From NCBI RefSeq assembly GCF_038025025.1, contig NW_027117344.1, forward strand, positions 2,046,001-2,110,000: a stretch of 64,000 nt of DNA. The letters are read 5' to 3'. The notes under the pieces are model-generated. The model saw only the letters and a program-made list of their open reading frames with translations. It did not search any database and had not been told where the DNA came from. Each line of letters opens with the position of its first letter. The first letter of the stretch is position 1. The translations under genes and the position numbers were made by a program. This DNA comes from Phyllosticta citribraziliensis. Taxonomy: Eukaryota. Positions 1,943 through 15,868 of the stretch are shown here, in pieces.

Positions 1943-3754
1943 GATCATCGATACCCCGCGTCCGTGCTCGCGAGTCAGGTCAGCCGCGCGAGCGAAGATC
2001 CTTGGAGCTCAACACCATCGTCCCTTTCGACCTTTTCTATTTTTGACATCCCATGTCCGACGCCGCCTTTCGACCATTTTCGTCTCCCCCAGTGCAGCAA
2101 CGAATCAACGATGGACAGAGCCACAGATGGGCGTGATTGCATCGAGCCAGAAAAGTCTGCGTCAGACAGTAGGTTCTTCGCAGCGTCTGTTTCCTCGACA
2201 TATCTTCAGCCCTTTTCCTGCCTGGTTGATGCAATCCCGACATTTCCATCAATGGTCACATCTCTTATTCCAAGAACACTTCAGTCTCAAAGTTACGCCT
2301 CCGCACGAGACAGAGACACTTGATTCGAAATGTCTCTGCTCGTTGCCCGATTGAGAGCTTGAATTAAGACGACGTGTTGAATCCGTCATGGACCGCCGAT
2401 ATCGTGCATAGGATCCAGTTTGCCACAGCCATACGGAGCCCATCCAACGAAAAACACGTTCCGAGTCGACAACAAACTTGGTCTCCAAAGTTGCACATTT
2501 GTTGCGGTGTGCCCAGATCGTGAGACAGACAATTGCACTGTTCGTTCGCCCTTGTAGTCAACAGTGTCGATGCCCTCTTGGCTCATGAAAACCTCTAATT
2601 CCGTCTCGCGAAAGACGAGAATAGTACGTGGCCGCGAGTATCTGCACTTGCAGAAAAGACCGACGCGGCTGAAAGGAGAGCCGCAGCACTACACGTGATG
2701 GAGGGCGATTGGTCCAGCCCAAGGCCGGAGTGAATTGTTGCACGAGCTGACAGGTGGTTAGATGCTGACGTTGGTGCCTGGCGCCCTGCCAAGGACGGCT
2801 GGAGAGCGCTTTGTTGGACATGGTAGAACCCCATGTGGAATTCGCCGACCATGGCATCTTTGGCCCATGTTGGCCAATGGCGCAGCAATGCATGAACGGA
2901 CCGGCGAGCCGCAGGGGGCGGAGACAAATGCCGACGTGTGCTCGTGGTGATAGTCGGGAGTGCAAAAGTCGGAGGCTGGGGGCTGGCGAGGCTTGCAGTG
3001 CAGTGACGGATGCAAGCTGCGGGAGAGATGGGCTTCGACTGGCCAGAGTCGTCCATCAGCCCTGTCGGTGCATTTCCAGACGACGACGCTGCAATAGCTC
3101 AGAAGAGGAGGACTTGGACGTCAGTCTATCAGCTGGGCAGCATGACGGGGAAACGAAGGCCGCAGGACAAGGGTGCTGCTGTTGGCAAACCCCGCACGAC
3201 AATTGGCCCACGCCCCCGTCCTCTTCCTGTGGCATCCGCCTTGATTCCTCTCTTCACCTCTGCGTCTCGTCCAGGTCGTCTCCACCCGAGCCCGTCATTG
3301 CGTGTCGTCCAGTCTGGCACCGCAGCCTGAACCTGGGACCGTTTGGCGACTCGGCCCGCCCCCAACCAAGCTCCCTCCCGCGACCATCCGACCCGTACGC
3401 CAATCAACGCCGCCTCCCGCTACCCCAATACCACCTCTCCCGCCCGTCAGACTTGCCCGAGCACGCGTTTCAGATAACTTTTAGCCCCGTACTCTCGACT
3501 TCTTGCCCGACCTGCCCCTGCCACAGCTCTGCTTGCGCTCGTTGCTTTCTTTTTCTTTCCAGCTTCTTTCATCATCTCGTTGGAACATCGCCAAATTCTC
3601 GAGTCCATCGACGCCGCCTATTCGACTCGATGCGAATGACTGCCGCAACAAGTCCCCGGAGGCCACATCTCGCTCGTCCGGGCTTTCGACGTCAAGGCTG
3701 TAAAGCGCCGTTGTACTGAGGACAAGAGACGCTCGACCTTGCGCCTCGTCTGCC

Positions 3755-6700
3755 ATGCCGTCCGCCCAGCTCGCCGCAAGCGCCAACGGCGTCCTGGAGC
3801 GCTCATCTCGAGATTCGTCTCTTTTTCGAGCTCACAAGCCACTCTCTAGGAAAGGTGACTTTTTGCGCTTGCCCGGCGCATTTCCTCAGACGACTTCTTG
3901 GAACGACGATTCCTGCACAGACTTCAGCGACGACTCGACCCCAATCGGCTCCCCCTTGCAAAATGGACCAGAGTCTGGTCTGCCACCGACCCCACCGTCC
4001 CACGAAACACAACGGCCTCCTAGCGCAGTTGATGTGACCGACGGCGTCGTGGCGAAAAGACCCTCCTTGCGCACTCCCATAAATCAAAGAAGTCCCCCTA
4101 CTCCCGAACCAAGTCCACCGCGACGCCCCGAGTACCCACAGGCAAAGCTCCAGCCACCTCCCACCTTGCGCTACCCTTCGTCTCGAGCAGAATCTTTTAC
4201 CACGGCCAAAAGTCATTTGGGATCCGATGACGACGTTTCCCTGGGATCCTACTACGACGCATTGACTCCGGTCCAGCAGATTGTCATCAAGGCAAAGCAG
4301 ACTCAGGACATGAGCTTCGGGTTGGGGTTACATCTTGAGGCGGGAGACGATGTGACTCCAACGGAACGTAACCCTTTCGGGCGGTCGTCCAATAACACGT
4401 GGGAAACAAGCAATGGCGGGACTCTGAAGAATGGAACAGTACGGCCCCTTGCATCCCGGCCGCCTCATTCTATTTCTGTAACAAAGAGAGGGCAAAATCC
4501 GCGCGAACACGAAGATGGGAAACGGCTGTCAAAGAGCCCAGGGCTGGAAAAGTTTGCACGCGAGATTGGTTGGACCAGTGATGCCTTGGATGACACCACA
4601 GACTCCAAGCGCCTTTCGAGCACTTCAACCACCTCTACAGTTGTGGAGGCTGTCGTGGTTTCTACTTCAACCGACCAGAAGCGACAACTTCGTCATGCTG
4701 GGAAGAACTTGGCTTTTCGGCATACCAGTGACACGACGGCTGATCGTCCGTCCCCTCGTCGGTCACACCGCATGCCTGTAAATGGAGTGGATCATACCCA
4801 TCGTCTATTACACCACTATGACCGGATACCTGACAGGAAGCGGGACAGCCTAGGGACAGCCTTGCCCACTGAAGCAGTTTCTAGACACGACACGATTTCG
4901 ACAAATTCCAGCACCGCCACGGTCAGGGCCTTGGACGATGTGGTTAAAAGCGAAAAGCAGTCCAAACTGGGAGCAGATGAAAATGGCTCCCCCGGCTACT
5001 TTGACGTACCCAAAAGACGGTTGAAGAGGGCTGCAAATGGAGATTCGCCCATCTCAAAGCAGGCCGAAGCTCCACAAGACCGCCGAATTTTCACAGCACC
5101 AGCCATTGTAAATCGTCACAACCAACGGGTAACTTTGCAATATTCTCCAAAGGAGCATTCTCACGAAAGCTTTCGGCGTTCCTACGAAGGATTTCGACGG
5201 ATTTCAGACGACGCTTCGGACAGGTCTTTGCAGTCTACTCCATCTCCCGACAATTCGAGATTTGTGCCCTCGCCTCCCGCTAGCAAGGCAGCCAGGAAGC
5301 TATTGCAGGAGCAGGCTACAGATGCAGTCAAGCCTCTCCCACAGCCTGGCCCAACAGAATTTCTGACTCCTGATCGAGCCAGAAAGGCTGAAAGCGTCAA
5401 ATCACGTGCGAGTGACCGCACGGAAGACATTCGTCGTCCAAGTATGGACCACGACCGAACCTCGCCTGTCTTTCTGCACACTGGGCGCACCAGCTTTGAT
5501 CGAGCGACCCTCTATACCTCACGGTATCGGGATGCCTCACAAACTCCCTATTCGCAGCACTCGCAAGTTTCGGGGGTTTCTGATGGTCTCGAAGTTCACG
5601 AGGCGACGGCTATGGCGATATATCCGCACAACAACAACAGTCTGGTCGTCGTTCAACAAGTCGCCCGCGATGGCTCCCTTTCCAGCAGTGGCAACCAGAC
5701 TTTTACGACCGCCGGTCCGTCCATGTCACAAGCAAATCTTTTTGGTAACTCTCTGTCTCCTCCTGCATTAATGTTCAACGACAAACCACTGCCAATCCCG
5801 AAAGAAGAACCGCCGACCCCACCCATCTTAATGTTCAACGACAAGCCACTACCAACTCCGCGAAAATTCGACGATGATGATGATGCACTCGACTTTGCTC
5901 TGGAAAATCCCCGCACGCCTCCTTTGCCCCCAGCACTCAACGTCATCCCGCCAACACCCCATAATGATAACGAGAGCGACTCCAAAGATCCTGACAGGCC
6001 GAGCCGTCGCCAATCCTTGACGAAAAAGGCGAGGCGCTATTCGGACAGTTTGATACAACCCGTCTTGGAGCGGACTGCAACGATCACCAAGCGGATGAAC
6101 ATTACCTTGCCCCAAAGACGACAGTCGCTCTCGGGCAAAGATGTCCTTGAGAAACAAAATGCTCTCCATCCTTTTTGGCGTCCACGCGGCTTTTGGGATG
6201 ACTTTGCCAGCGATTCAGATGAAGATTATGACAATATTGACGCAATGCCCATTGGTCGCTTGCCCAAGGGAGGCGACACGAGCAATGTCGGAGCCGAAGA
6301 AACTCAGCGCCAACGCATCGCGGCTCTTGGTCGCCGCCTTACCAATGGTTTCAAGGGCAGTGGAGGCTTCTTGATTGGCAACAGTCTCGGTGTTGAACGC
6401 GCTGGGAGCAATGCTCGTCGGCACCACATCCAACTGCCCTCGGTTCCCATGGCTGACGTTCGTGCTGGACTACGCAGCGGATTGGTAAAGACCAGCACCG
6501 GCCTCGGCCGCGCCAAAGCGACCACTCTGGAGCGTGCGGGCGTCCTGGCTCGTCGCATTGGGCGCTTTGAAGGTCGGATTATGAAGCAGCGCTCGCAGGC
6601 CACACTACGCCACAACGTCCACCAACCCGACAACACGGCCGTGACCAACATCACTTCGACCACAAGTCCACCACCACAGCCTCCCAACAACGACCATGAC

Positions 6701-7345
6701 GCCGCCCTTGTTGACGCCGCAGACCACCGCCCCACTGTCATCACAACCATTACGACCAGCTCTCCCCACGCCAAGGCTACTCCAACGTTGCGTACTGAGT
6801 CGTCGATCGATCTTGCATTGTCGGGCGGCGCTGGTGGCGTGTCGCGCTTCAGCACGGCATCCACTTCGACCGCCACTGCGGGGCCAGTGCAGACAGATGA
6901 AGTCGACATTGAGCAGCAGTACGAAGACTTTCGTCGGGCTCGCGAGCAGGCGCGGCAAAAGTGGCACGCATACCACGACCGCAAAAATAAATTCAAGGAT
7001 CCGGAGAGGGGTCGCTCCGCTGTAGCTACTGGGGCCTCGACCTCTGATACCGCAGGGGCGACTGCAGCCAATGATTCTGCTCCGGGTGGTACGCGCCGCA
7101 GACGCAGCCTCTCCCTTCCTGGCACGAGGTGGGGTGTCGAGTACGTTGGCCTGACGGGTCTGCGCGAGAAGCTTGCAGAAGCGCGATCGGAGAGGCGGAG
7201 AGACCGTTTGAGGGGCAGTATTCGCGTGAGGCCCGTGGAGCGCGAGGGAAGCGGGAGCAGTCACGGCGGGAGAGATTCACTGGGCTGGGGCTCCGTTTGG
7301 GGTGCCGGTGGAGGAGCAGCCGGTGGCACAAGTGCGACGCGTTGA
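3755..7345 (+). CDS. Large S/P/R-rich, likely disordered hypothetical protein (1196 aa)
   Basis: Uninterrupted 3.6-kb ORF with good start context (gccATGc). Short aromatic motif LHPFWRPRGFWDDF; no recognisable catalytic domain. Confidence 0.8.
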   Translation: MPSAQLAASANGVLERSSRDSSLFRAHKPLSRKGDFLRLPGAFPQTTSWNDDSCTDFSDDSTPIGSPLQNGPESGLPPTPPSHETQRPPSAVDVTDGVVAKRPSLRTPINQRSPPTPEPSPPRRPEYPQAKLQPPPTLRYPSSRAESFTTAKSHLGSDDDVSLGSYYDALTPVQQIVIKAKQTQDMSFGLGLHLEAGDDVTPTERNPFGRSSNNTWETSNGGTLKNGTVRPLASRPPHSISVTKRGQNPREHEDGKRLSKSPGLEKFAREIGWTSDALDDTTDSKRLSSTSTTSTVVEAVVVSTSTDQKRQLRHAGKNLAFRHTSDTTADRPSPRRSHRMPVNGVDHTHRLLHHYDRIPDRKRDSLGTALPTEAVSRHDTISTNSSTATVRALDDVVKSEKQSKLGADENGSPGYFDVPKRRLKRAANGDSPISKQAEAPQDRRIFTAPAIVNRHNQRVTLQYSPKEHSHESFRRSYEGFRRISDDASDRSLQSTPSPDNSRFVPSPPASKAARKLLQEQATDAVKPLPQPGPTEFLTPDRARKAESVKSRASDRTEDIRRPSMDHDRTSPVFLHTGRTSFDRATLYTSRYRDASQTPYSQHSQVSGVSDGLEVHEATAMAIYPHNNNSLVVVQQVARDGSLSSSGNQTFTTAGPSMSQANLFGNSLSPPALMFNDKPLPIPKEEPPTPPILMFNDKPLPTPRKFDDDDDALDFALENPRTPPLPPALNVIPPTPHNDNESDSKDPDRPSRRQSLTKKARRYSDSLIQPVLERTATITKRMNITLPQRRQSLSGKDVLEKQNALHPFWRPRGFWDDFASDSDEDYDNIDAMPIGRLPKGGDTSNVGAEETQRQRIAALGRRLTNGFKGSGGFLIGNSLGVERAGSNARRHHIQLPSVPMADVRAGLRSGLVKTSTGLGRAKATTLERAGVLARRIGRFEGRIMKQRSQATLRHNVHQPDNTAVTNITSTTSPPPQPPNNDHDAALVDAADHRPTVITTITTSSPHAKATPTLRTESSIDLALSGGAGGVSRFSTASTSTATAGPVQTDEVDIEQQYEDFRRAREQARQKWHAYHDRKNKFKDPERGRSAVATGASTSDTAGATAANDSAPGGTRRRRSLSLPGTRWGVEYVGLTGLREKLAEARSERRRDRLRGSIRVRPVEREGSGSSHGGRDSLGWGSVWGAGGGAAGGTSATR
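5761..5860 (+). repeat. 60-nt-period tandem duplication encoding LMFNDKPLP twice
   Basis: ttaatgttcaacgacaa(a/g)ccact at 5768 and 5828. Confidence 0.85.
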
Positions 7346-8068
7346 GGTAGGTTTGACGTGAGGATCTTTTCCATCTTGTTTCGATTGTTCGCAACACAGC
7401 GCTGGGTGCAGCAACGACGATACGACGACACGACTTACGACGGCTGGCTGTTTCTCTTCTCATGGCTTTTTTCGCATCTTGTCTTTCCAACTTCACCCGT
7501 CTGTCTTCTAATATAGGTATTGCTTTTTGCATCTTTTCCAAGCGTCTGGTTTTGCGAATACGCCTCGATGAATGCAACGACGAGTTTCGACTTTAGTGAT
7601 GACATCACGGCGGAAAAGCAAGCAGGGGGTGAACGGGTGAACCCATGCATCTTGTCTTGGCAGGGGATGATGTTTGACAAATGACGGCTGTCCATTTCTT
7701 ATAGCTGACGGCTGTAAGTCATTTTGTACGCAATTCCCAATGAACATGTGCAGAAAAACAAACGCAAGGCGACAAGGAATCAATGCATATCCCGGCGTCT
7801 TCCGCAAAGTCTATTGTCTATCAAAAATGCCGCACAACGCGCGCCCCGTCGGCCTTTTTGCGAAGCTTTTCGCGCGCTGTTGGCAAGGAAACACGCGTCC
7901 GCGACGCGCTCACCTCCTCACCTCAAACTTAGTAGCACCGCGTCGCTAGACTTGCGTCCAGGTCACACAAACTTTGCAATTGTTGAGACCGTTATATCGA
8001 TCTTGCTCTCTTCTGTTTCCGCGGCCCTTTTTCTCAGTCCATCTGTTTTGGAAGACGTGACGTTCGTG

Positions 8069-10012
8069 ATGAGGAAAGTTGATTCGTACAGGCCGCTGTC
8101 GCCTTCGCGTTCCGGATCGGGCAGGGCGACGCCGTCGACCTACGACAGCGCCGACGACGACGCGTGGAGGCGGGGCGACTGCACCATCCGAGGAGCATCC
8201 ATGGCACGCACGCCGTCCCACGAGGAAGAGGACAGAGCCATCCCTCCGACGAAAAACGACAGAAAAGACAGCGGCGTACACTTCGACAACCACGACGTGC
8301 AGAAGAAGTGGAAGGCGCGACAGAATTTCAACTTCAAGAGCCTCATCAAAGTGCCGGCGCCAAAGGCTCCGAAGGAATGGCCCCCGAAGCAATGGCCAAA
8401 TGTGGAAAGGTGAGTCGATCGATGATGCTGTCTGTTTGGGCGGCTGGAGACGTTGATGCGTGCGTTGTCTAGCTGGCGGAAGGACTGCCCTCGTTGCGGT
8501 GGCATACGTCACACGGCCGTCGCGCAACAATGCAATCGGCTTTGTCGGCTTTGCGGTACTTTTCAGCACATTGGAGGTCGGTGTCCGCGAAACAGAGATG
8601 GGAATAACAGGAACGAAAAGAGTCCAGGGAATGGGACTCACAACGGAGACCTTGAAAAGAAAAGGGACCTGTTTCCTGAGAGGGTTACCAAAGCTGAGCC
8701 CGTGGAGAAGAGACAGGACCAGAAGGTGATCAACCATTCGTTCGTGGAGAAGAGACAAGACGAGAAGAAGGTTGCCAAACCTACTCTCGTGGAGAGGAAA
8801 CATGATGCGAAGAAAGTGGTCAATCCTACACTCGTGGAGAAGAGACATGATGAGAAGAAAGTGGTCAAACCTACTCTCGTCGAGAAGAGACTCAATGACG
8901 GGAACCACGGTAGAGACATGGAGCTCGACGAGCCTTGGAGAAACTTCTCGTTCAAGTTGGGGGCGACGGATCAAAAATTGATAACACCCACGCTCAGCAA
9001 CGCGGCCCAGAATGAAGGAATGCATCGAGACAGCGGGGACTATGGCGGTAGGTCAACGGCCAGCAGAACAGATTCTGTGTCTGAACGACGGAGCTCTACA
9101 AGATGGGATGTTCGTCCCAAAGACGACTGGGACCAGTCCAATCGACTAACTCCCATTGACTTTGGCAATGACGACCGACGCCAATCTGGTCGACTGACTC
9201 CTGTCGACTTTGGAAACAATGACCGGAGCCAGGCCAATCGACTGGGACCACCCTTCGAATATGGAGACAATGATCGCGGTCGGTTCAGCCAAACGCCTCA
9301 CATGGACCATCATCAGCACAGGGGTTGGGAGGAGCCTCCCCTAAGATCGCGCGCGGACCAAGACATCGACATGGCGTACCGACGAGACGACGGAAGCCTC
9401 CCAGATCTGCGCACCGAGAACGAGCAGCTGCGCTCCAACTGCGACAACTTCCGCACGCGCAGCGAAAAGCTCTTCTCGCAAAACCTGACGCTCCTCCGCG
9501 ACCGCGAGATGCTGCGGCGGCAGCTGGAATTGGTGGGCATGGAAAAGAGGCGACAAGCCACCACCGCAACCTCCACCACAAACCCCAACTGCTTCGACCC
9601 TTCGTTTTGGCTGCGCCAGATGCAGATGGCGGAGCTGGAACGGATGCGGGCTGCCAGTTTCGACGCGTCGGCGTCGCTGCGTCAGCAGCAGCTCGAGATG
9701 GCTGAGGCGGAGAAGAGGCGGTCGAACGATTCGGACGCTTCGCCGCAAATGCGAAAGGCGGATGTCGGAGACATGAAGGATAGAATGGCGAGGAACCCTG
9801 ATAATCCTTTTGCGCTGCGCCAACAGCAGCAGCATGACATGGCCGGGATGGAGCAACGACCGGCAAACGGTTTCGACATGGCCCTCCCCGTGATGATGCC
9901 CCCCATGTCTTTGCCCGGCATGCCGTTTGGCGCTGCTTTTGCTCCTCCCCAGTTTCATCCGCTCGAGATGGATCGCTCGTGGCTGGGTGGTGGCTTTCAT
10001 TATCCGATGTAA
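8069..10012 (+). CDS. Hypothetical protein with CCHC zinc knuckles, peptide tandem repeats and a coiled coil
   Basis: ATG 8069; intron 8410-8472 (GTGAGT..TAG) joins the 7724 and 8453 ORF frames in phase. Motifs CPRCGGIRHTAVAQQC and CRLCGTFQHIGGRC (C-x2-C-x4-H-x4-C). Confidence 0.75.
8701..8890 (+). repeat. About 4.3 copies of a 42-45-nt coding repeat (VEKRHDEKKVVKPTL-like)
   Basis: Units begin cgt(g/c)gaga at 8701, 8743, 8788, 8833 and 8878. Confidence 0.9.
9133..9276 (+). repeat. Three copies of a 48-nt coding repeat (QSNRLTPIDFGNDDRR-like)
   Basis: Units begin at 9133, 9181 and 9229. Confidence 0.85.
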
Positions 10013-10824
10013 ACGTTCCCTTGGCAGGATCCTCAAGTTGTGCAGTCTCTTGCTGGATTTCGTGTCTCTTTGCTGCGGAGTGGGCTTCTTGTAGGTGAGT
10101 TGGGAGTAGAGTTGTGTCAGGCCGGCTTTGGGCTGCACCTCCTGTGTTCTTCTGGGTTCTGGCACAGTACTTCAGTCCAAACTCATTTACCTGATGAACA
10201 AGTACCCTGTGCCATGTCATAACTGAATGAGCAGCAACAGGCTCCCATTTGTTTATTGTCCTGCAGCCCCACGCGCCTGTCGGTCAAGCATTTTCCAGGC
10301 TCTTCGCAACCGTAACTGACAACCTCACCTTCACACCCCGCGATACGACCTGCCATCGCTCCAAAGCCGCCGCTTCCCGTCTCACACACTAAAAGACAAA
10401 AACAAACATCACTCATAGACACCAAAGACAAAAAAGAATGCATATACTGCCCCAATAGGGCCGGTACAGCGATCAATTCGCCCAGGGCAAAGACTGCACT
10501 GGACAGCAACAGTACCGGGAAACAGGTGACAGACGGCACAACACCACCGAGGGGTGTGGGGCCTTTGCTATGCGACTGACAGTTGACAAGCGCGGCACGG
10601 CGCAAAAGCCAGGCTTGCCTTGAGGTAGTCGCGACACTACTGTTTGCTGAGTCACTCACTCGCTGTATCGAGCGAGCAGAAATTTTCCTCGTCGCTTCCT
10701 TGACGGGAAGGACGTGTCACGATAGCAGCAATCATGGATGCTGACAGCGCGACGCGGCGCGACACTGCGTAGCGATCGAAGCGCAAGAAAAGAATCCACA
10801 CCGACAAAGCGAGCTGTCAAAGAC

Positions 10825-10830
10825 AAAAAA
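10825..10830 (-). terminator. RNA polymerase III oligo-T terminator of the tRNA-Asp gene
   Basis: TTTTTT on the minus strand, 17 nt downstream of the discriminator base and preceded by TTTC. Confidence 0.8.
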
Positions 10831-10860
10831 GAAAGGATCATTGAATCTCTCCGACGGGGA

Positions 10861-10923
10861 CTGCGTGTGCTGTTAGTGAAACTGCGCCGGACAAACACCT
10901 TGAGTGGAGGGGCGGCTACTTAC
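10861..10923 (-). other. Spliceosomal (U2-type) intron, 63 nt, inside the tRNA T-loop between positions 59 and 60
   Basis: 5' GTAAGT (10923-10918), branch site CACTAAC (10878-10872), 3' CAG (10863-10861). Exact removal restores GGTTCGATTCCCC. Confidence 0.88.
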
Positions 10924-10944
10924 ATCGAACCCCGGTCTCCCGCG

Positions 10945-10961
10945 CTTGCAAGACACTGTCA
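10945..10961 (-). other. Canonical tRNA (TSEN-type) intron, 17 nt, after position 37
   Basis: TGACAGTGTCTTGCAAG lies one base 3' of the anticodon; its TGACA is complementary to the TGTCA of the anticodon loop. Confidence 0.88.
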
Positions 10962-11418
10962 TGACAAGCGGAAATCATCACCACTAGACCATCGAAGACC
11001 TGTTTGTTGATGGAGGAGGCCCCCGTTGGTGTGGGTTATGAAGCGAGAGAGGGTCTGTTGTTGTGCCGAGATGCGCCGGAGCGATGCGCCGCTAGGCCAG
11101 TCTGGGTGATGTGTGGACAAGGATGGCTGGACTATTTTGCCGATTGTGGCCGAGCAGGCACTGCCACTGACCGTCGCTTTTTAGGGGGAGGGGAGCGTGG
11201 AGTTCTTTTGAGGGCTGTCTCCCTTATCTATGCTGGTCGACGTCTTTCAAAGCTGGAGACTCCCAGTTCACCAGGACCATCATTCCAATTTTGTTGTCCC
11301 CGTGCGAAGAATATTATATTAACTCCAAGACTACCTATTACCATCTATGCATGCCACGCTTATGAACAACGAAGCTCTACGTCTAAGATTACACCCGTGT
11401 TGAACGAGTTCAGCCAGC

Positions 11419-13545
11419 TCACTCGCTCCGCTCCCCCGGCGGCGTAGGAGCCTCGAGCACCTCCTGGATCCTCTGGCTCGGAAGCCACTGCTCAGCAGGA
11501 ATGACCCACCACGAGACGAGGGCAAATATGGTAACAATAGCCATGATGACGGGCGCATAGTTGAGCGTCTCGGCCGTGACGGGGAACTCGTACGGCGAAA
11601 AGAGAACAGCAACGACCCAGCCGTTCCAAAAGACGGCGATGAACTGGAACGGCTTGCTCAGCCAGCCCAGGCTCCATGCCGGCTTGGGGAAGGTTTTGGG
11701 GGTGCACAGGAGGCGGCCGAGGCAGATGAGGCCGTATGCTGCGACGGTTGGCACGCCTGCGGCGGAGACGAGCGATGTGAAGGCCACGGCGGATGGGAGG
11801 ATGCTGCAGCTGATAAAGGATGCGACGCCCCAGACCACCAGCACTGCGTTTCTCGGTTGGCCGTCGACGACTCGGGCGACCCAGCTGGACCATGGGAGAA
11901 CGCCGTCACGAGCTACGGCAAAGACTAGGCGCGAAGACGCCAGAATGGCGATTGCAGTGTTCTTCTAGAGTCAGCGCACGTCATGAGGGAAAGCTCACCG
12001 ACTTACCAGCCAGAGTGCCACGACGCAAACAACGTTCATGAAAATGTGGCCGCCTTTTCCGAGGATAACTGCATACAGGGGGACAAACGGCTGCTCTCCT
12101 CCAAAAGAGAACAGCGTATCAGCGTCCGGCTGGACACCCTTCATCAGCTCAAGCAAATCAAAGCATACAGGGGCAAACGTACAACACAGAACAGGAAGAG
12201 AATCATGACAGCAAATCCACCAAGACCACTGACAATCGTGCTCCAAAAGATCCCACGGGCCGCCGCGACGGACGCATTCTTCGTCTCCTCAGCCACATGG
12301 CCAGACGCGTCGAAACCGATCAGGATGCCGGCGGTGGCGAGGTACGACAGACACCAGTTCCAGCCAGCAGGGGCGCCCGTGCCGTTGTAGGTCGTCATGA
12401 AAGCCTCGTGCGCGGTGCGGAAGCCGTAGGTGTTCTTCGTTCCGATGGGTAGCCAGATCATGTTCAGCGCAAAGTCGAGAAGCACGACCATCGATGACAA
12501 CCAGAAGATGTGCCGGAAGTATTTTGCTGGAAAAGATCAGAATCGTTTGATAGGCAAAGAAGGTGAGGTTTACGTGGCATCAGGTTTGCCAATGCAGCTA
12601 CGGCCAGCATTACTTCTGTGCATATCCACTGGACCGCCCTGAACTTCACAGAGCTGCTGTCACTGGGAAAGTCGACGCTGAAGACGACGATTTCCTGGGG
12701 CGGCGGTCAGACAAGCCGAAAAGTTGACCAGAGGAAAAGCTTACCGAAAGAAAATAGTTGACAGTCGCTTGGGTATTACCTGCAACAAGGTCAGCTTGGT
12801 ATCATCTTCAAACACGTCAAAAGAACTGACTGGCACAAAAGGTCGTCCAAGCCGTGGTACTCCACCACGCAACGATGAAACCAAACAGCCTGCCAAACCG
12901 AGGACCGCCAGCCTCTGCAGCCCAGAGGTAAATGGACCCGGCCAACGGCAGCGATGAGCATATCTCGGCGATAGCAGCGGCAGTGATGAACGAGAAGACG
13001 CAGGACACGATAAAGCTCGTCCTACATCGGGATGTCAGAATTGGACAGAACCAATGCCTTTGTGTAAAAGAGCATACCAGTATGCCAGATTACCACCGGC
13101 TGCAATTCCGGTGCTAAACGTCGTCCTGACACCGCCGACGAAATACAACGCCGCTGATGGCTCTGTCAGCGCGAATCGGGAGGGGAAAGAAGGCGAAAAC
13201 GAACCAAACGACGTCGCAAAGTTGTGGAAGATGCTGTACGTCCGATGAAGCACCTACAATTCACACCTCACACATCAACATCAACATCTCGAATCGACCT
13301 CCAATCACGGGATTTGACAATCGCAGCCCAGCAATGCAAAACAACAAGGGTAGAATTACAGGCTTGTACCCCAAATTTCTCTGCAAATTCAGACATCAGT
13401 CATTTCATTCGCCAGAGTAGGACGAATGGCTACGAACGAGAACGGCAGCGTCCTTGGTGTTGTCGAACGACTCTCCCTCCGACGAGTCGTAGTCGGGCAC
13501 CGCTTGGCTGCTGCTGGCCTGCGCCAAGGCGTCGGATCGAGCCAT
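11419..13545 (-). CDS. APC-superfamily amino-acid/GABA/choline/polyamine permease, multi-exon
   Basis: ATG 13545 (MARSDALAQ...). Exon pieces RNLGYKP / VLHRTYSIFHNFATSF / AEICSSLPLAGSIYLW / GFDASGHVAEETKNAS / NYAPV; about nine short GT-AG introns including 21- and 35-nt micro-exons. Confidence 0.9.
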
Positions 13546-15868
13546 GTCGGGAGCGTGGAGGCGAACGGAGGCGGACGAGATAGATGTGGGGATGATGGGA
13601 TGGGGGCGCGGTCGTGATGCCCAAAGCGGCGCTGGGTTCCTGCCAATTGCCGACGCCTTTCGCTCGTGTTCTGGTGTGGATCTGCCGCCGATGCTGCTGC
13701 TGGTACGGCAGGCGAAAAGAAGAGAAGATGATGTTGGAATAGAGTCGCTGCTTTCGCTACCAAACAGAAAAATAAAGTAGCTCGTGCCACCATACGCGCG
13801 GATAATTAGATGTAATTTTTGATTTTTTTCTTTTCGCTCTACTTTTTTGCTTTGCTCCCGCTAATCACGACAGGGCGCGCCATATCTCACCCGTTGAGTA
13901 CGTCACCACGGCAATTTTTTCTCTGCGGTGTCGGACCGGCCAGGACTTTCACGCCAGCGGCCCCTCTCTCAAACAATACAGACGGCTCGTTTGAAAGATA
14001 CAGTCGCGCTGCATGAAAGCGTTGTGAATATGAGGCAGAATGTATACCGAGCAGCGCGCAGCATCGTCACTGTCGTGCTTCTCGCTGCGTAGCGGTAGCG
14101 TCCGCCGCCCGGAAGCAATCGCGTGCCGGCCCTTGATTCCGCAATTGAGACAGCGCCGCCGCAAGCGTTGCCTATCTCATTGAAGACCGGTAGGGCACGA
14201 AGGAAACCAACGGTAACAATGGCTGACTGGCGTTCTCGCTGCCCCCGGAAAATGCCAATTTGGGAAGACGTGTATGCACGCCGCTGTCTTTGTCGTGGGC
14301 GTCGCGGTTGGGTTGCTGCCGCGCTGCCACTTGTCGACGCGCGACTGGACTGGATGGGCCGGAGTTGCTTCCTGGCGAAGGGTGAGTCTTGCGTGTCGCG
14401 AATGGTGCGGTAGAGGGGACAGAGAGATGTGGGAGGGAGCAAAGTGAGAAAAGGTTTCAACACCAAGATCCTGAACTGCCTTGAGTGAGGTTGGTGGTAG
14501 ATGCGCGCAGCAGACGGCAGAGAGAGGATTGCTTGTTGAAGAGACCACCATGATGAAACGAAAGACCAAACTGCTTACCCAACGAACAAAGACTCGGACT
14601 CCCACGAAGAGACTCCAACACACAAAGCACACGCCAAACCAGCAAACATCTTCCTTCTCCAGCCAGCCTCAACGAGTAAATCCCGCTCCGCCCATGTCCG
14701 CTCCGCCCTTTCCTCCGACTTGACTCAGAACCCACAACCAGCCCACCACACTGGCACTCACCAGCCACAGACAACCCATGCCAGACAGACAAGCACCATG
14801 CCCGCTCCGCAAACTCTAAACCGGCGCGCCAGCGAAGCTTGGCCGTGAGGTAAAAACGTCCGCCTGCTGTCTCTCATCACCCAACCTTAACCTCTACCCT
14901 TCTACCACTATCACAGGCGCGCTTTTACCACTGAGTTGATGGAGCCCATCGATTGGATGACGCAGTTTCACACTCATATCTGAACCCCCCCTTCCTTATC
15001 AACGGTTACCTGCAGCAGGCGTCCGCTTGCTGCATCCCCCGGATCGACGGCACATGCATTGATAGATTAATCTGGGGGACAGCGGCAAGATAGACGCGAA
15101 GAAAGCATAAACGCACATCCACAAGCGACCATCATAATATTTGGTGGGTCAGAGGAAAAGGAAGAAAAGAACATTATATTCTCCCGCAGGCTGACGGACA
15201 CAGACAGACAAAAGGCAGCAGCAGTGAGGTAGGTAATCCGTTGTTTTCACTGTTCGAATGCCATGAGAATCGTTACACAAGTCAATCCAATCGCAGTCGT
15301 CGACTCATCATATCAGAAGCGCTGCGTGGTCATCGACCTCGTTCCCAAGCAAATCCTTCGACTTTGCCGCTCCGTCAAAACGCACCCAAGCCGCCTGAAA
15401 TGCAGCAACTTTTCAAGAAAGACCAAGAGTCTCATCGACCATTGCCGCCAGCAAGCGCTCGGAGAACCACCCACCTCGCCTCGAACTCATCGTCAGCAGC
15501 CGAGAATCTCTCCATGTCTGAGTGGTCCTCGGCGGTGCGCCAAGTTCCAATTAAAACCAAAACAAAACGCCAGAGCCCATGATGCGCCCAATGCAGGTGT
15601 TCAGATGCGATCCCAATCCCGTCTATGTATCGTCGTCCGGAGTCCAAGGAATTGGCCGCCACCGCCTGTGCGTGGGTTGAAACAGCCAACCAGACGAGTG
15701 CTGCATCTGCCAGGCTACCACGTTCGGGGCGACGGCTCAGGGAGGAGGAAAATCGTCAAAAACAAAATATTGGCCAAGAAGAAAATGAAAAAAGACCCAA
15801 TCCGAATGCTGCCAATAACAACGGAAGAAAAGCGTCATTACCCGTTCCAATCATTGAAAATTTCGTCA

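Follow-up and report, generated by a model that had tools for sequence, protein, structure and literature searches.

Textbooks and reviews keep the introns of nuclear genes in two separate classes: those removed by the spliceosome, which occur in RNA polymerase II (Pol II) transcripts and in a few small nuclear RNA (snRNA), small nucleolar RNA (snoRNA) and ribosomal RNA (rRNA) genes, and those cut out by an endonuclease, which occur in transfer RNAs (tRNAs). Whether a tRNA gene can also carry an intron of the first class is the question raised by a locus in a 64,000-nucleotide (nt) stretch of Phyllosticta citribraziliensis DNA (contig NW_027117344.1, positions 2,046,001 to 2,110,000), the whole of which was analysed and is referred to below as the window. 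On the minus strand, from position 10998 to position 10847 of the window, lies a tRNA-Asp(GTC) gene in three pieces, separated by two interruptions of different kinds, a canonical tRNA intron of 17 nt and an insert of 63 nt that bears the signals of a spliceosomal intron. The gene is a structurally intact tRNA-Asp(GTC) with two interruptions of unlike type. Our favoured interpretation, to which we commit about half of our confidence, is that a transcribed ascomycete tRNA-Asp(GTC) gene acquired a U2-type GT-AG intron in its T-loop, between tRNA positions 59 and 60.

Exon 1 (10962..10998; like all features of the gene, on the minus strand) comprises 37 nt, corresponding to tRNA positions 1-37, and contains the 5' strand of the acceptor stem, the D arm with the A box, and the anticodon GTC. 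The 17-nt intron (10945..10961) follows position 37 and is of the type removed by the tRNA splicing endonuclease (TSEN). Its start, as read from the sequence, holds GAC, complementary to the anticodon, which is usual for eukaryotic tRNA introns. Exon 2 (10924..10944; 21 nt, positions 38-59) supplies the 3' strand of the anticodon stem, a 4-nt variable loop, the 5' strand of the T stem and the first six bases of the T-loop. Between T-loop positions 59 and 60 stands the 63-nt spliceosomal-type intron (10861..10923), which opens with the 5' splice site GTAAGT (10918..10923), carries the branch-site motif CTAAC (10872..10876) within CACTAAC, its branch A (10873) lying 12 nt ahead of the final intron base, and closes with the 3' splice site CAG (10861..10863). 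Exon 3 (10847..10860; 14 nt, positions 60-73) completes the gene with the last T-loop base, the 3' strands of the T and acceptor stems and the discriminator G73. In the mature form all stems pair, as judged by eye, except for one U13-U22 mismatch in the D stem. A run of six T (T6; 10825..10830), the probable terminator of RNA polymerase III (Pol III), starts 17 nt after position 73; it is the sole run of four or more T in 11010-10815 and the first after the gene start, and the 63-nt insert holds none. Set against the B-box consensus, the insert sits inside the B box, in the T-loop, splitting it after the eighth of its 11 bases.

Standard tRNA finders overlook the interrupted gene. ARAGORN called no tRNA in the native 64-kb window, and the Rfam search of the whole window returned no match at the gathering score and three at E<=10, none of them a tRNA. 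Once both interruptions were removed by coordinates, ARAGORN called a 72-nt tRNA-Asp(gtc) with the cloverleaf, the anticodon GTC and the conserved D-loop and T-loop bases by which such a tRNA is recognised. Neither of the two variants that keep the 63-nt insert was called under any of three option sets. When the insert was removed, the 17-nt intron kept and introns allowed, ARAGORN reported a 17-nt anticodon-loop intron misplaced at position 34 and named the tRNA Leu(caa). Around the insert, one of 289 boundary pairs restored the mature product, and that pair is the exact GT..AG. The marks of a tRNA pseudogene (stem-breaking substitutions, lost conserved bases and silence) were absent, although the interruption itself could still disable the gene.

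To place the insert among the introns of its own genome, we assembled a local set of GT..AG segments that break a long open frame when kept and restore it when removed; the window yielded 42 candidate pairs, distributed over 23 donor sites. These local candidates are typical ascomycete introns. They are mostly 43-63 nt long, a range that includes the 63 nt of the insert, and their donors read GTAAGT (6 of the 23 sites), GTATGT, GTACGT or GTGAGT, the first of these being the donor of the insert. Local branch sites read CTGAC or CTAAC, and the insert has CACTAAC; among local introns with a CAG or TAG acceptor the branch A lies mostly 9-13 nt from the acceptor (range 5-16), and in the insert it lies at 12 nt. 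Across the 5,881,790 window segments of 45-90 nt, a donor, a branch site and YAG at the very ends coincide in 26 cases under a loose donor and in 6 under GTAAGT, real introns included. Among the 127,874 segments of exactly 63 nt, the full set of signals occurs once, in the insert itself, and its signals are therefore not due to chance. By every sequence test available, the insert is a spliceosomal-type (U2-type, GT-AG) intron.

A preliminary description of the locus, made from the letters of the window, had claimed much of this, and those claims stood. Its minus-strand sequence, two interruptions and tRNA-Asp(GTC) identity were recovered by coordinates as quoted, its branch A was confirmed at 10873, and the size and signals that it had likened to those of the mRNA introns of the window agreed with the local set. 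Deletion of the insert in silico restored Asp-GTC as it had expected, with the proviso that ARAGORN makes the call once the 17-nt intron is also removed; its statements that splicing at exactly GT/AG rebuilds the tRNA and that standard finders would miss the gene were borne out by the boundary pairs and by the empty ARAGORN and Rfam results for tRNA.

Compared with shuffled sequences, the fold of the precursor (z -0.55) and that of the insert (z +0.37) were nothing special. The insert has no second copy within the 64-kb window, where the best other match is 11-15 nt. Two other origins were considered and rejected: a transposon, since inspection by eye revealed neither a target duplication nor inverted ends at the borders of the insert, and a visible repeat family, since the window holds no further copy.

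Public sequencing runs offered evidence of transcription and of related loci. Contigs were compared over 10600-11500 for four of the 24 listed runs, designated X1, X4, X7 and X12. Run X1 carries the same organism label as the window (word share 0.73); the RNA nature of X1 and of X7 is a tool's guess, together with the coverage pattern and adapter-capped contig ends. The tRNA contigs of X1 cover only 10852-10989, with depth 0 on 10600-10851 and on 11003-11230. Since these contigs are confined to the gene body, the locus is transcribed as a short unit, a conclusion that rests on X1 being taken as RNA. Three contigs show overlaps of exactly 30 bases, the length expected between consecutive unitigs at k=31: a 100-nt contig on 10852-10951 (depth 55.8) that includes the entire insert with 0 differences, one on 10922-10953 (depth 75), and one on 10924-10989 (depth 312), which then passes into Illumina adapter. 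Depth steps up about fourfold, being 56-75 over the insert and 312 over exon 2, the 17-nt intron and exon 1, and it is precisely at the predicted 5' splice site, 10924|10923, that the contig graph branches; approximately three quarters of the depth bearing the 17-nt intron and exon 2 stops short of the insert. If, as we infer, the contigs are unitigs, this step fits an abundant intermediate from which the 63-nt intron has gone and in which the 17-nt intron is kept. The partner of the branch at 10924 lies outside the four X1 contigs compared, and may alike be the spliced form, a paralogue or a molecule end.

The exon 1 contig of X1 ends at 10989, tRNA position 10, and runs straight into the adapter. 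Reverse transcription that stops at a modified G9 (for example, m1G9) gives a contig end of this sort. Were such a modification the explanation, the precursor pool would already be undergoing modification as tRNA.

Some related lineages share the insert, and the joined sequence of another lacks it. Run X12, a true RNA library from a plant metagenome, contains a 170-nt contig of a relative that aligns to 10836-10996 with 26 differences in 161 nt (16%) and 0 gaps; with no gaps, both interruptions are present at the same lengths in the relative, and the insert predates the split from it. Despite this divergence, the exons, donor, branch site and acceptor are all intact in the organism of the window. 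Run X4 has another organism label, covers all 30 bins and is DNA-like and mixed. In it, the insert occurs in at least two variants of 62 and 64 nt, with one base fewer or one more at 10906, and both variants are changed at 10901 and 10911; these three sites (10901, 10911 and 10906) are intron positions 23, 13 and 18. The listed X4 differences all fall between donor and branch, with 2 of 9 differences listed for the main contig. Run X7, RNA-like and with a third organism label (organism C), yielded a 2,004-nt contig on 10600-10860 that continues with 16 letters equal to the plus strand of 10924-10939, such that at the syntenic locus nothing separates exon 3 from exon 2; the contig breaks off at precisely the point at which a 31-mer comes to consist entirely of tRNA sequence. 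Given the 2 kb of flank on this contig, an intron-free gene in organism C is the more likely origin of this join, as against a spliced long transcript.

Two further contig breaks were observed in the insert-bearing sequences. In X1 a second break lies two bases into the insert (window 10921-10953), and in X4 the insert-bearing contig stops one base into the 17-nt intron (10945-10946). These breaks may come from a second copy or allele with the insert, different at the third base of the donor or in the small intron.

From these observations we propose a course of maturation, of which we infer every step save the transcription of the locus. Pol III would start transcription just upstream of 10998 and end it at the T6 run (10830-10825), a proposal supported by the absence of a Pol III stop signal from the insert and the position of T6 right after the gene. 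The precursor, unable to form its T arm while it holds the 63 nt, would stay in the nucleus. There the spliceosome would recognise GTAAGT, CACTAAC and CAG and excise the 63 nt as a lariat, which would rebuild the T-loop; the RNA could then fold as a tRNA, have its ends processed and be exported. TSEN and tRNA ligase would remove the 17-nt intron last, and this order would give the very species suggested by X1, with the large intron gone and the small one kept. The intron itself most likely would have arisen by reverse splicing or intron transposition into the tRNA, as has been proposed for fungal U6 introns. Functional removal of the 63-nt insert by the spliceosome seems to us evenly balanced between true and false, and the same even weighting applies to the wider proposition that an ascomycete clade keeps at least one tRNA-Asp gene in need of the spliceosome and then of TSEN and tRNA ligase, in series.

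Several observations weigh against spliceosomal maturation. The insert splits the B box and replaces the conserved C61/C62, which should weaken binding of TFIIIC, and Pol III transcripts are reported to be spliced poorly in animal cells. Of the promoter and terminator elements, the A box and T6 are in place and the B box is split; insert-bearing RNA is nonetheless found in X1. The RNA status of X1 and X7, in turn, was guessed and is absent from the run records. Among the four X1 contigs compared there is no exon 2-exon 3 join of this locus and no lariat, and the X1 depth step could also be explained, without splicing, by insert-free tRNA-Asp paralogues. The unspliced form was readily assembled in two RNA libraries, X1 and X12, which also fits poor or absent splicing. 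In X4 the summed depth is 3,552 on exon 1 and about 1,540 on exon 2 and the 17-nt intron, compared with 273-300 on the insert, and one contig runs from exon 2 into the 3' half of the T stem and acceptor without the insert; these depths and this contig together show that the DNA of that sample includes insert-free tRNA-Asp copies with the same exon 2 and perhaps the same 17-nt intron. The insert-free 3' half in X4 carries two C-to-T changes, which give G-U pairs, and then an AT-rich flank with a T6 run; this contig is an uninterrupted tRNA-Asp copy, from the same or another organism in the sample. The syntenic locus of organism C lacks the insert in its joined sequence, and the intron is therefore not universal in the group. 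Among many tRNA-Asp copies, the interrupted one may be dispensable; any mature tRNA made from it would have the same sequence as the products of its paralogues.

The alternative that survives best, possible but less probable than spliceosomal maturation, is that the gene is a disabled or idle copy: an intron or intron-bearing fragment landed in one of many tRNA-Asp genes, and the gene is transcribed, its precursor failing to be spliced productively and being degraded. The splice signals would then, on the same tentative footing, reflect the origin of the insert and no current function. The split B box, the readily assembled unspliced RNA of X1 and X12, the lack of a junction or lariat among the X1 contigs compared, the many insert-free paralogues to which the X4 depth profile and the uninterrupted X4 copy point, and the joined sequence of organism C without the insert all speak for such a copy.

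Constraint bears on the choice between the idle copy and spliceosomal maturation. Intact exons and signals argue for it, with less force than at first sight. From exon 1 through the 17-nt intron to exon 2 run 75 unbroken bases, a block that paralogues could keep intact by gene conversion even in an idle copy; concerted evolution among tRNA families is noted in PMC5832005. With this block open to gene conversion, the clean test is confined to the 14 nt of exon 3 and 14 signal bases. Exon 3, donor, branch site and acceptor are intact although 26 of 161 positions differ in the insert-bearing relative, a divergence at which 28 neutral bases of this kind would often carry a change; neutrality may fit too, given how short the stretch is. 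The restriction of the listed X4 differences to the intron interior speaks against an idle copy as well, and a nuclear RNA with strong signals should undergo at least partial splicing, as U6 does (PMC5855946). The preliminary description had taken the absence of decay in the exons as an argument against a dead pseudogene. The exons are indeed all intact, and the argument loses much of its force through the 75-nt block that gene conversion could keep. Its larger claim, of a tRNA matured by two splicing machineries, finds backing in the sequence marks, the transcription and the relatives; the X1 depth step, which fits paralogues too, leaves that claim short of established.

An unlikely alternative places the tRNA-like sequence in a longer Pol II transcript, either a non-coding RNA or read-through from a neighbour, as a pair of exons around an ordinary 63-nt Pol II intron, with the tRNA released secondarily. 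The 2,004-nt contig of X7, which spans the 3' flank (10600-10860) and enters exon 2, would be a spliced long transcript of this type if X7 is RNA and the gene there bears the intron. The depth of 0 in X1 on both flanks, 10600-10851 and 11003-11230, opposes it, as do the A box, the T6 terminator and the lack of an internal T run; no open reading frame (ORF) with a Pfam family overlaps the tRNA locus. The locus is intergenic, lying between a plus-strand ORF that ends at 10012 (no Pfam family) and an amino-acid permease gene on the minus strand (PF13520, E 6e-15), which has the end of its last exon at 11419-11421 and its nearest Atlas clusters mostly in Ascomycota. The permease-side contig of X1 stops at 11231 with adapter, which also counts against a shared transcript. 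Permease contigs in both X1 and X7 end at 11231-11233 in adapter, approximately 188 nt past the stop codon at 11419-11421. This is probably the 3' end of the permease mRNA, with the tRNA gene about 230 nt further on and outside that transcript.

Less probable still is a non-canonical tRNA intron with a bulge-helix-bulge (BHB) motif and cleavage by the tRNA splicing endonuclease, of the kind present in Cyanidioschyzon merolae or nucleomorphs, even though in those algae introns do occur at non-canonical positions, the T arm among them (PMC4090602 and PMC4033280). No candidate 4-bp helix was found between the 5' end of the insert and the start of the 3' exon or between the end of the 5' exon and the 3' end of the insert, and the minimum-energy fold contains no BHB. 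Fungal TSEN measures by a ruler from the mature domain, according to PMC4090602, and that domain cannot form with the T-loop split. Such an origin would also reduce the full spliceosomal signal set, found once in 127,874 segments, to coincidence. A TSEN or BHB class was rejected for the insert on its position at 59/60 and its lack of a central helix; the 17-nt intron, by contrast, lies at 37/38.

Assembly artefact or chance resemblance, for which we found no supporting evidence, is scarcely credible: the same signal statistics oppose chance, and the artefact, which the preliminary description had named as a possible refutation, is refuted as far as contigs can show by three runs, each from a different study, whose contigs include the insert (0 differences in X1, two variants in X4, a relative in X12).

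We next compared the locus with known systems. The preliminary description knew of no report of a spliceosomal intron in a tRNA, and we likewise found none in the full-text literature; most subscription journals lay outside that search, so this absence is not proof. In the available portions of the relevant articles, the named hosts of spliceosomal introns are U6, U2, U5, U1 and rRNA (PMC5855946), with U3 as a further one (PMC5832005). The available part of PMC4033280 tabulates the types of disrupted tRNA genes, with no spliceosomal case among them, and that of PMC4090602 describes the non-canonical tRNA introns of eukaryotes as BHB-dependent and contains no word starting with "spliceosom".

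The closest parallel is fungal U6 snRNA. Its Pol III transcript in Schizosaccharomyces pombe contains an intron excised by the spliceosome, and introns of this kind occur in many fungal U6 genes; these are unrelated to one another, have canonical signals but no conservation beyond them, show a patchy distribution, and are proposed to stem from reverse splicing followed by reverse transcription (PMC5855946). The tRNA-Asp gene resembles U6 of S. pombe and many yeasts in being a short, highly structured Pol III transcript with a canonical 5' splice site, branch site and 3' splice site and in the patchy presence of the intron among relatives. It differs in that its host is a tRNA and no component of the spliceosome, such that closeness to the catalytic centre cannot explain the insertion; in that the tRNA-Asp RNA also carries a TSEN intron; and in that splicing has been shown for S. 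pombe U6, whereas here the intron is a candidate by its sequence. Fungal U3 snoRNA, the U1, U2 and U5 snRNAs and ascomycete ribosomal DNA are similar in having normal spliceosomal introns in non-coding RNA genes, mostly inferred from sequence, and are unlike it in their host RNAs, no tRNA host being mentioned in the available portions of PMC5832005 and PMC5855946. Cyanidioschyzon merolae, nucleomorphs and Archaea share with this locus the occurrence of more than one intron per tRNA gene and of sites outside 37/38, the T arm included (PMC4033280 and PMC4090602). Their introns, unlike this one, are defined by a BHB and depend on the tRNA endonuclease for cleavage; the insert fails the BHB test and bears spliceosomal signals. 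Introner-like elements form multi-copy families in protein-coding genes, and the insert differs from them in having no second copy in the 64-kb window. It shares with these elements, and with recent intron gain in ascomycetes (Zymoseptoria and relatives), the features of a lineage-specific, short intron with good signals (PMC5647799).

If spliceosomal maturation of this gene is true, this would be the first known spliceosome-dependent tRNA, crossing the border between the two intron classes, and would add to U6 a second, independent Pol III transcript that undergoes spliceosomal splicing. It would imply reverse splicing into an abundant RNA outside the spliceosome and far from its catalytic centre, which bears on how introns are gained. 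The presence and absence of the intron among close relatives would form a natural experiment on intron gain or loss. tRNA finders would systematically miss such genes, and more may hide in fungal genomes.

A metagenome scan extended the search beyond the window. Its pattern, composed of the end of exon 2, 40-70 free bases and the start of exon 3, is unbiased with respect to splice signals, and it matched 17 loci, none of which is a split tRNA-Asp; the matches look like chance matches in GC-rich sequence. Six of them begin with an unbroken T arm and, after it, an acceptor-like ...CTCCA. These six are ordinary tRNA-like or tmRNA-like (transfer-messenger RNA-like) 3' ends of GC-rich bacteria, the second half of the pattern having matched downstream by chance. 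With GT/AG added to the pattern, contigs of prokaryote genomes gave 0 matches.

Elsewhere in the window, a hairpin at 14004-14061 gave a weak match to mir-4860 (27.7 bits against a gathering score of 100, E 0.19) that is most likely due to chance. Two plus-strand open frames, 3704-7345 (1,213 amino acids) and 8426-10012 (528 amino acids), encode low-complexity sequences rich in Ser, Pro and Arg, with no Pfam family at E<=0.01. A candidate intron of 63 nt at 8410-8472 may link 7718-8413 to the frame 8426-10012.

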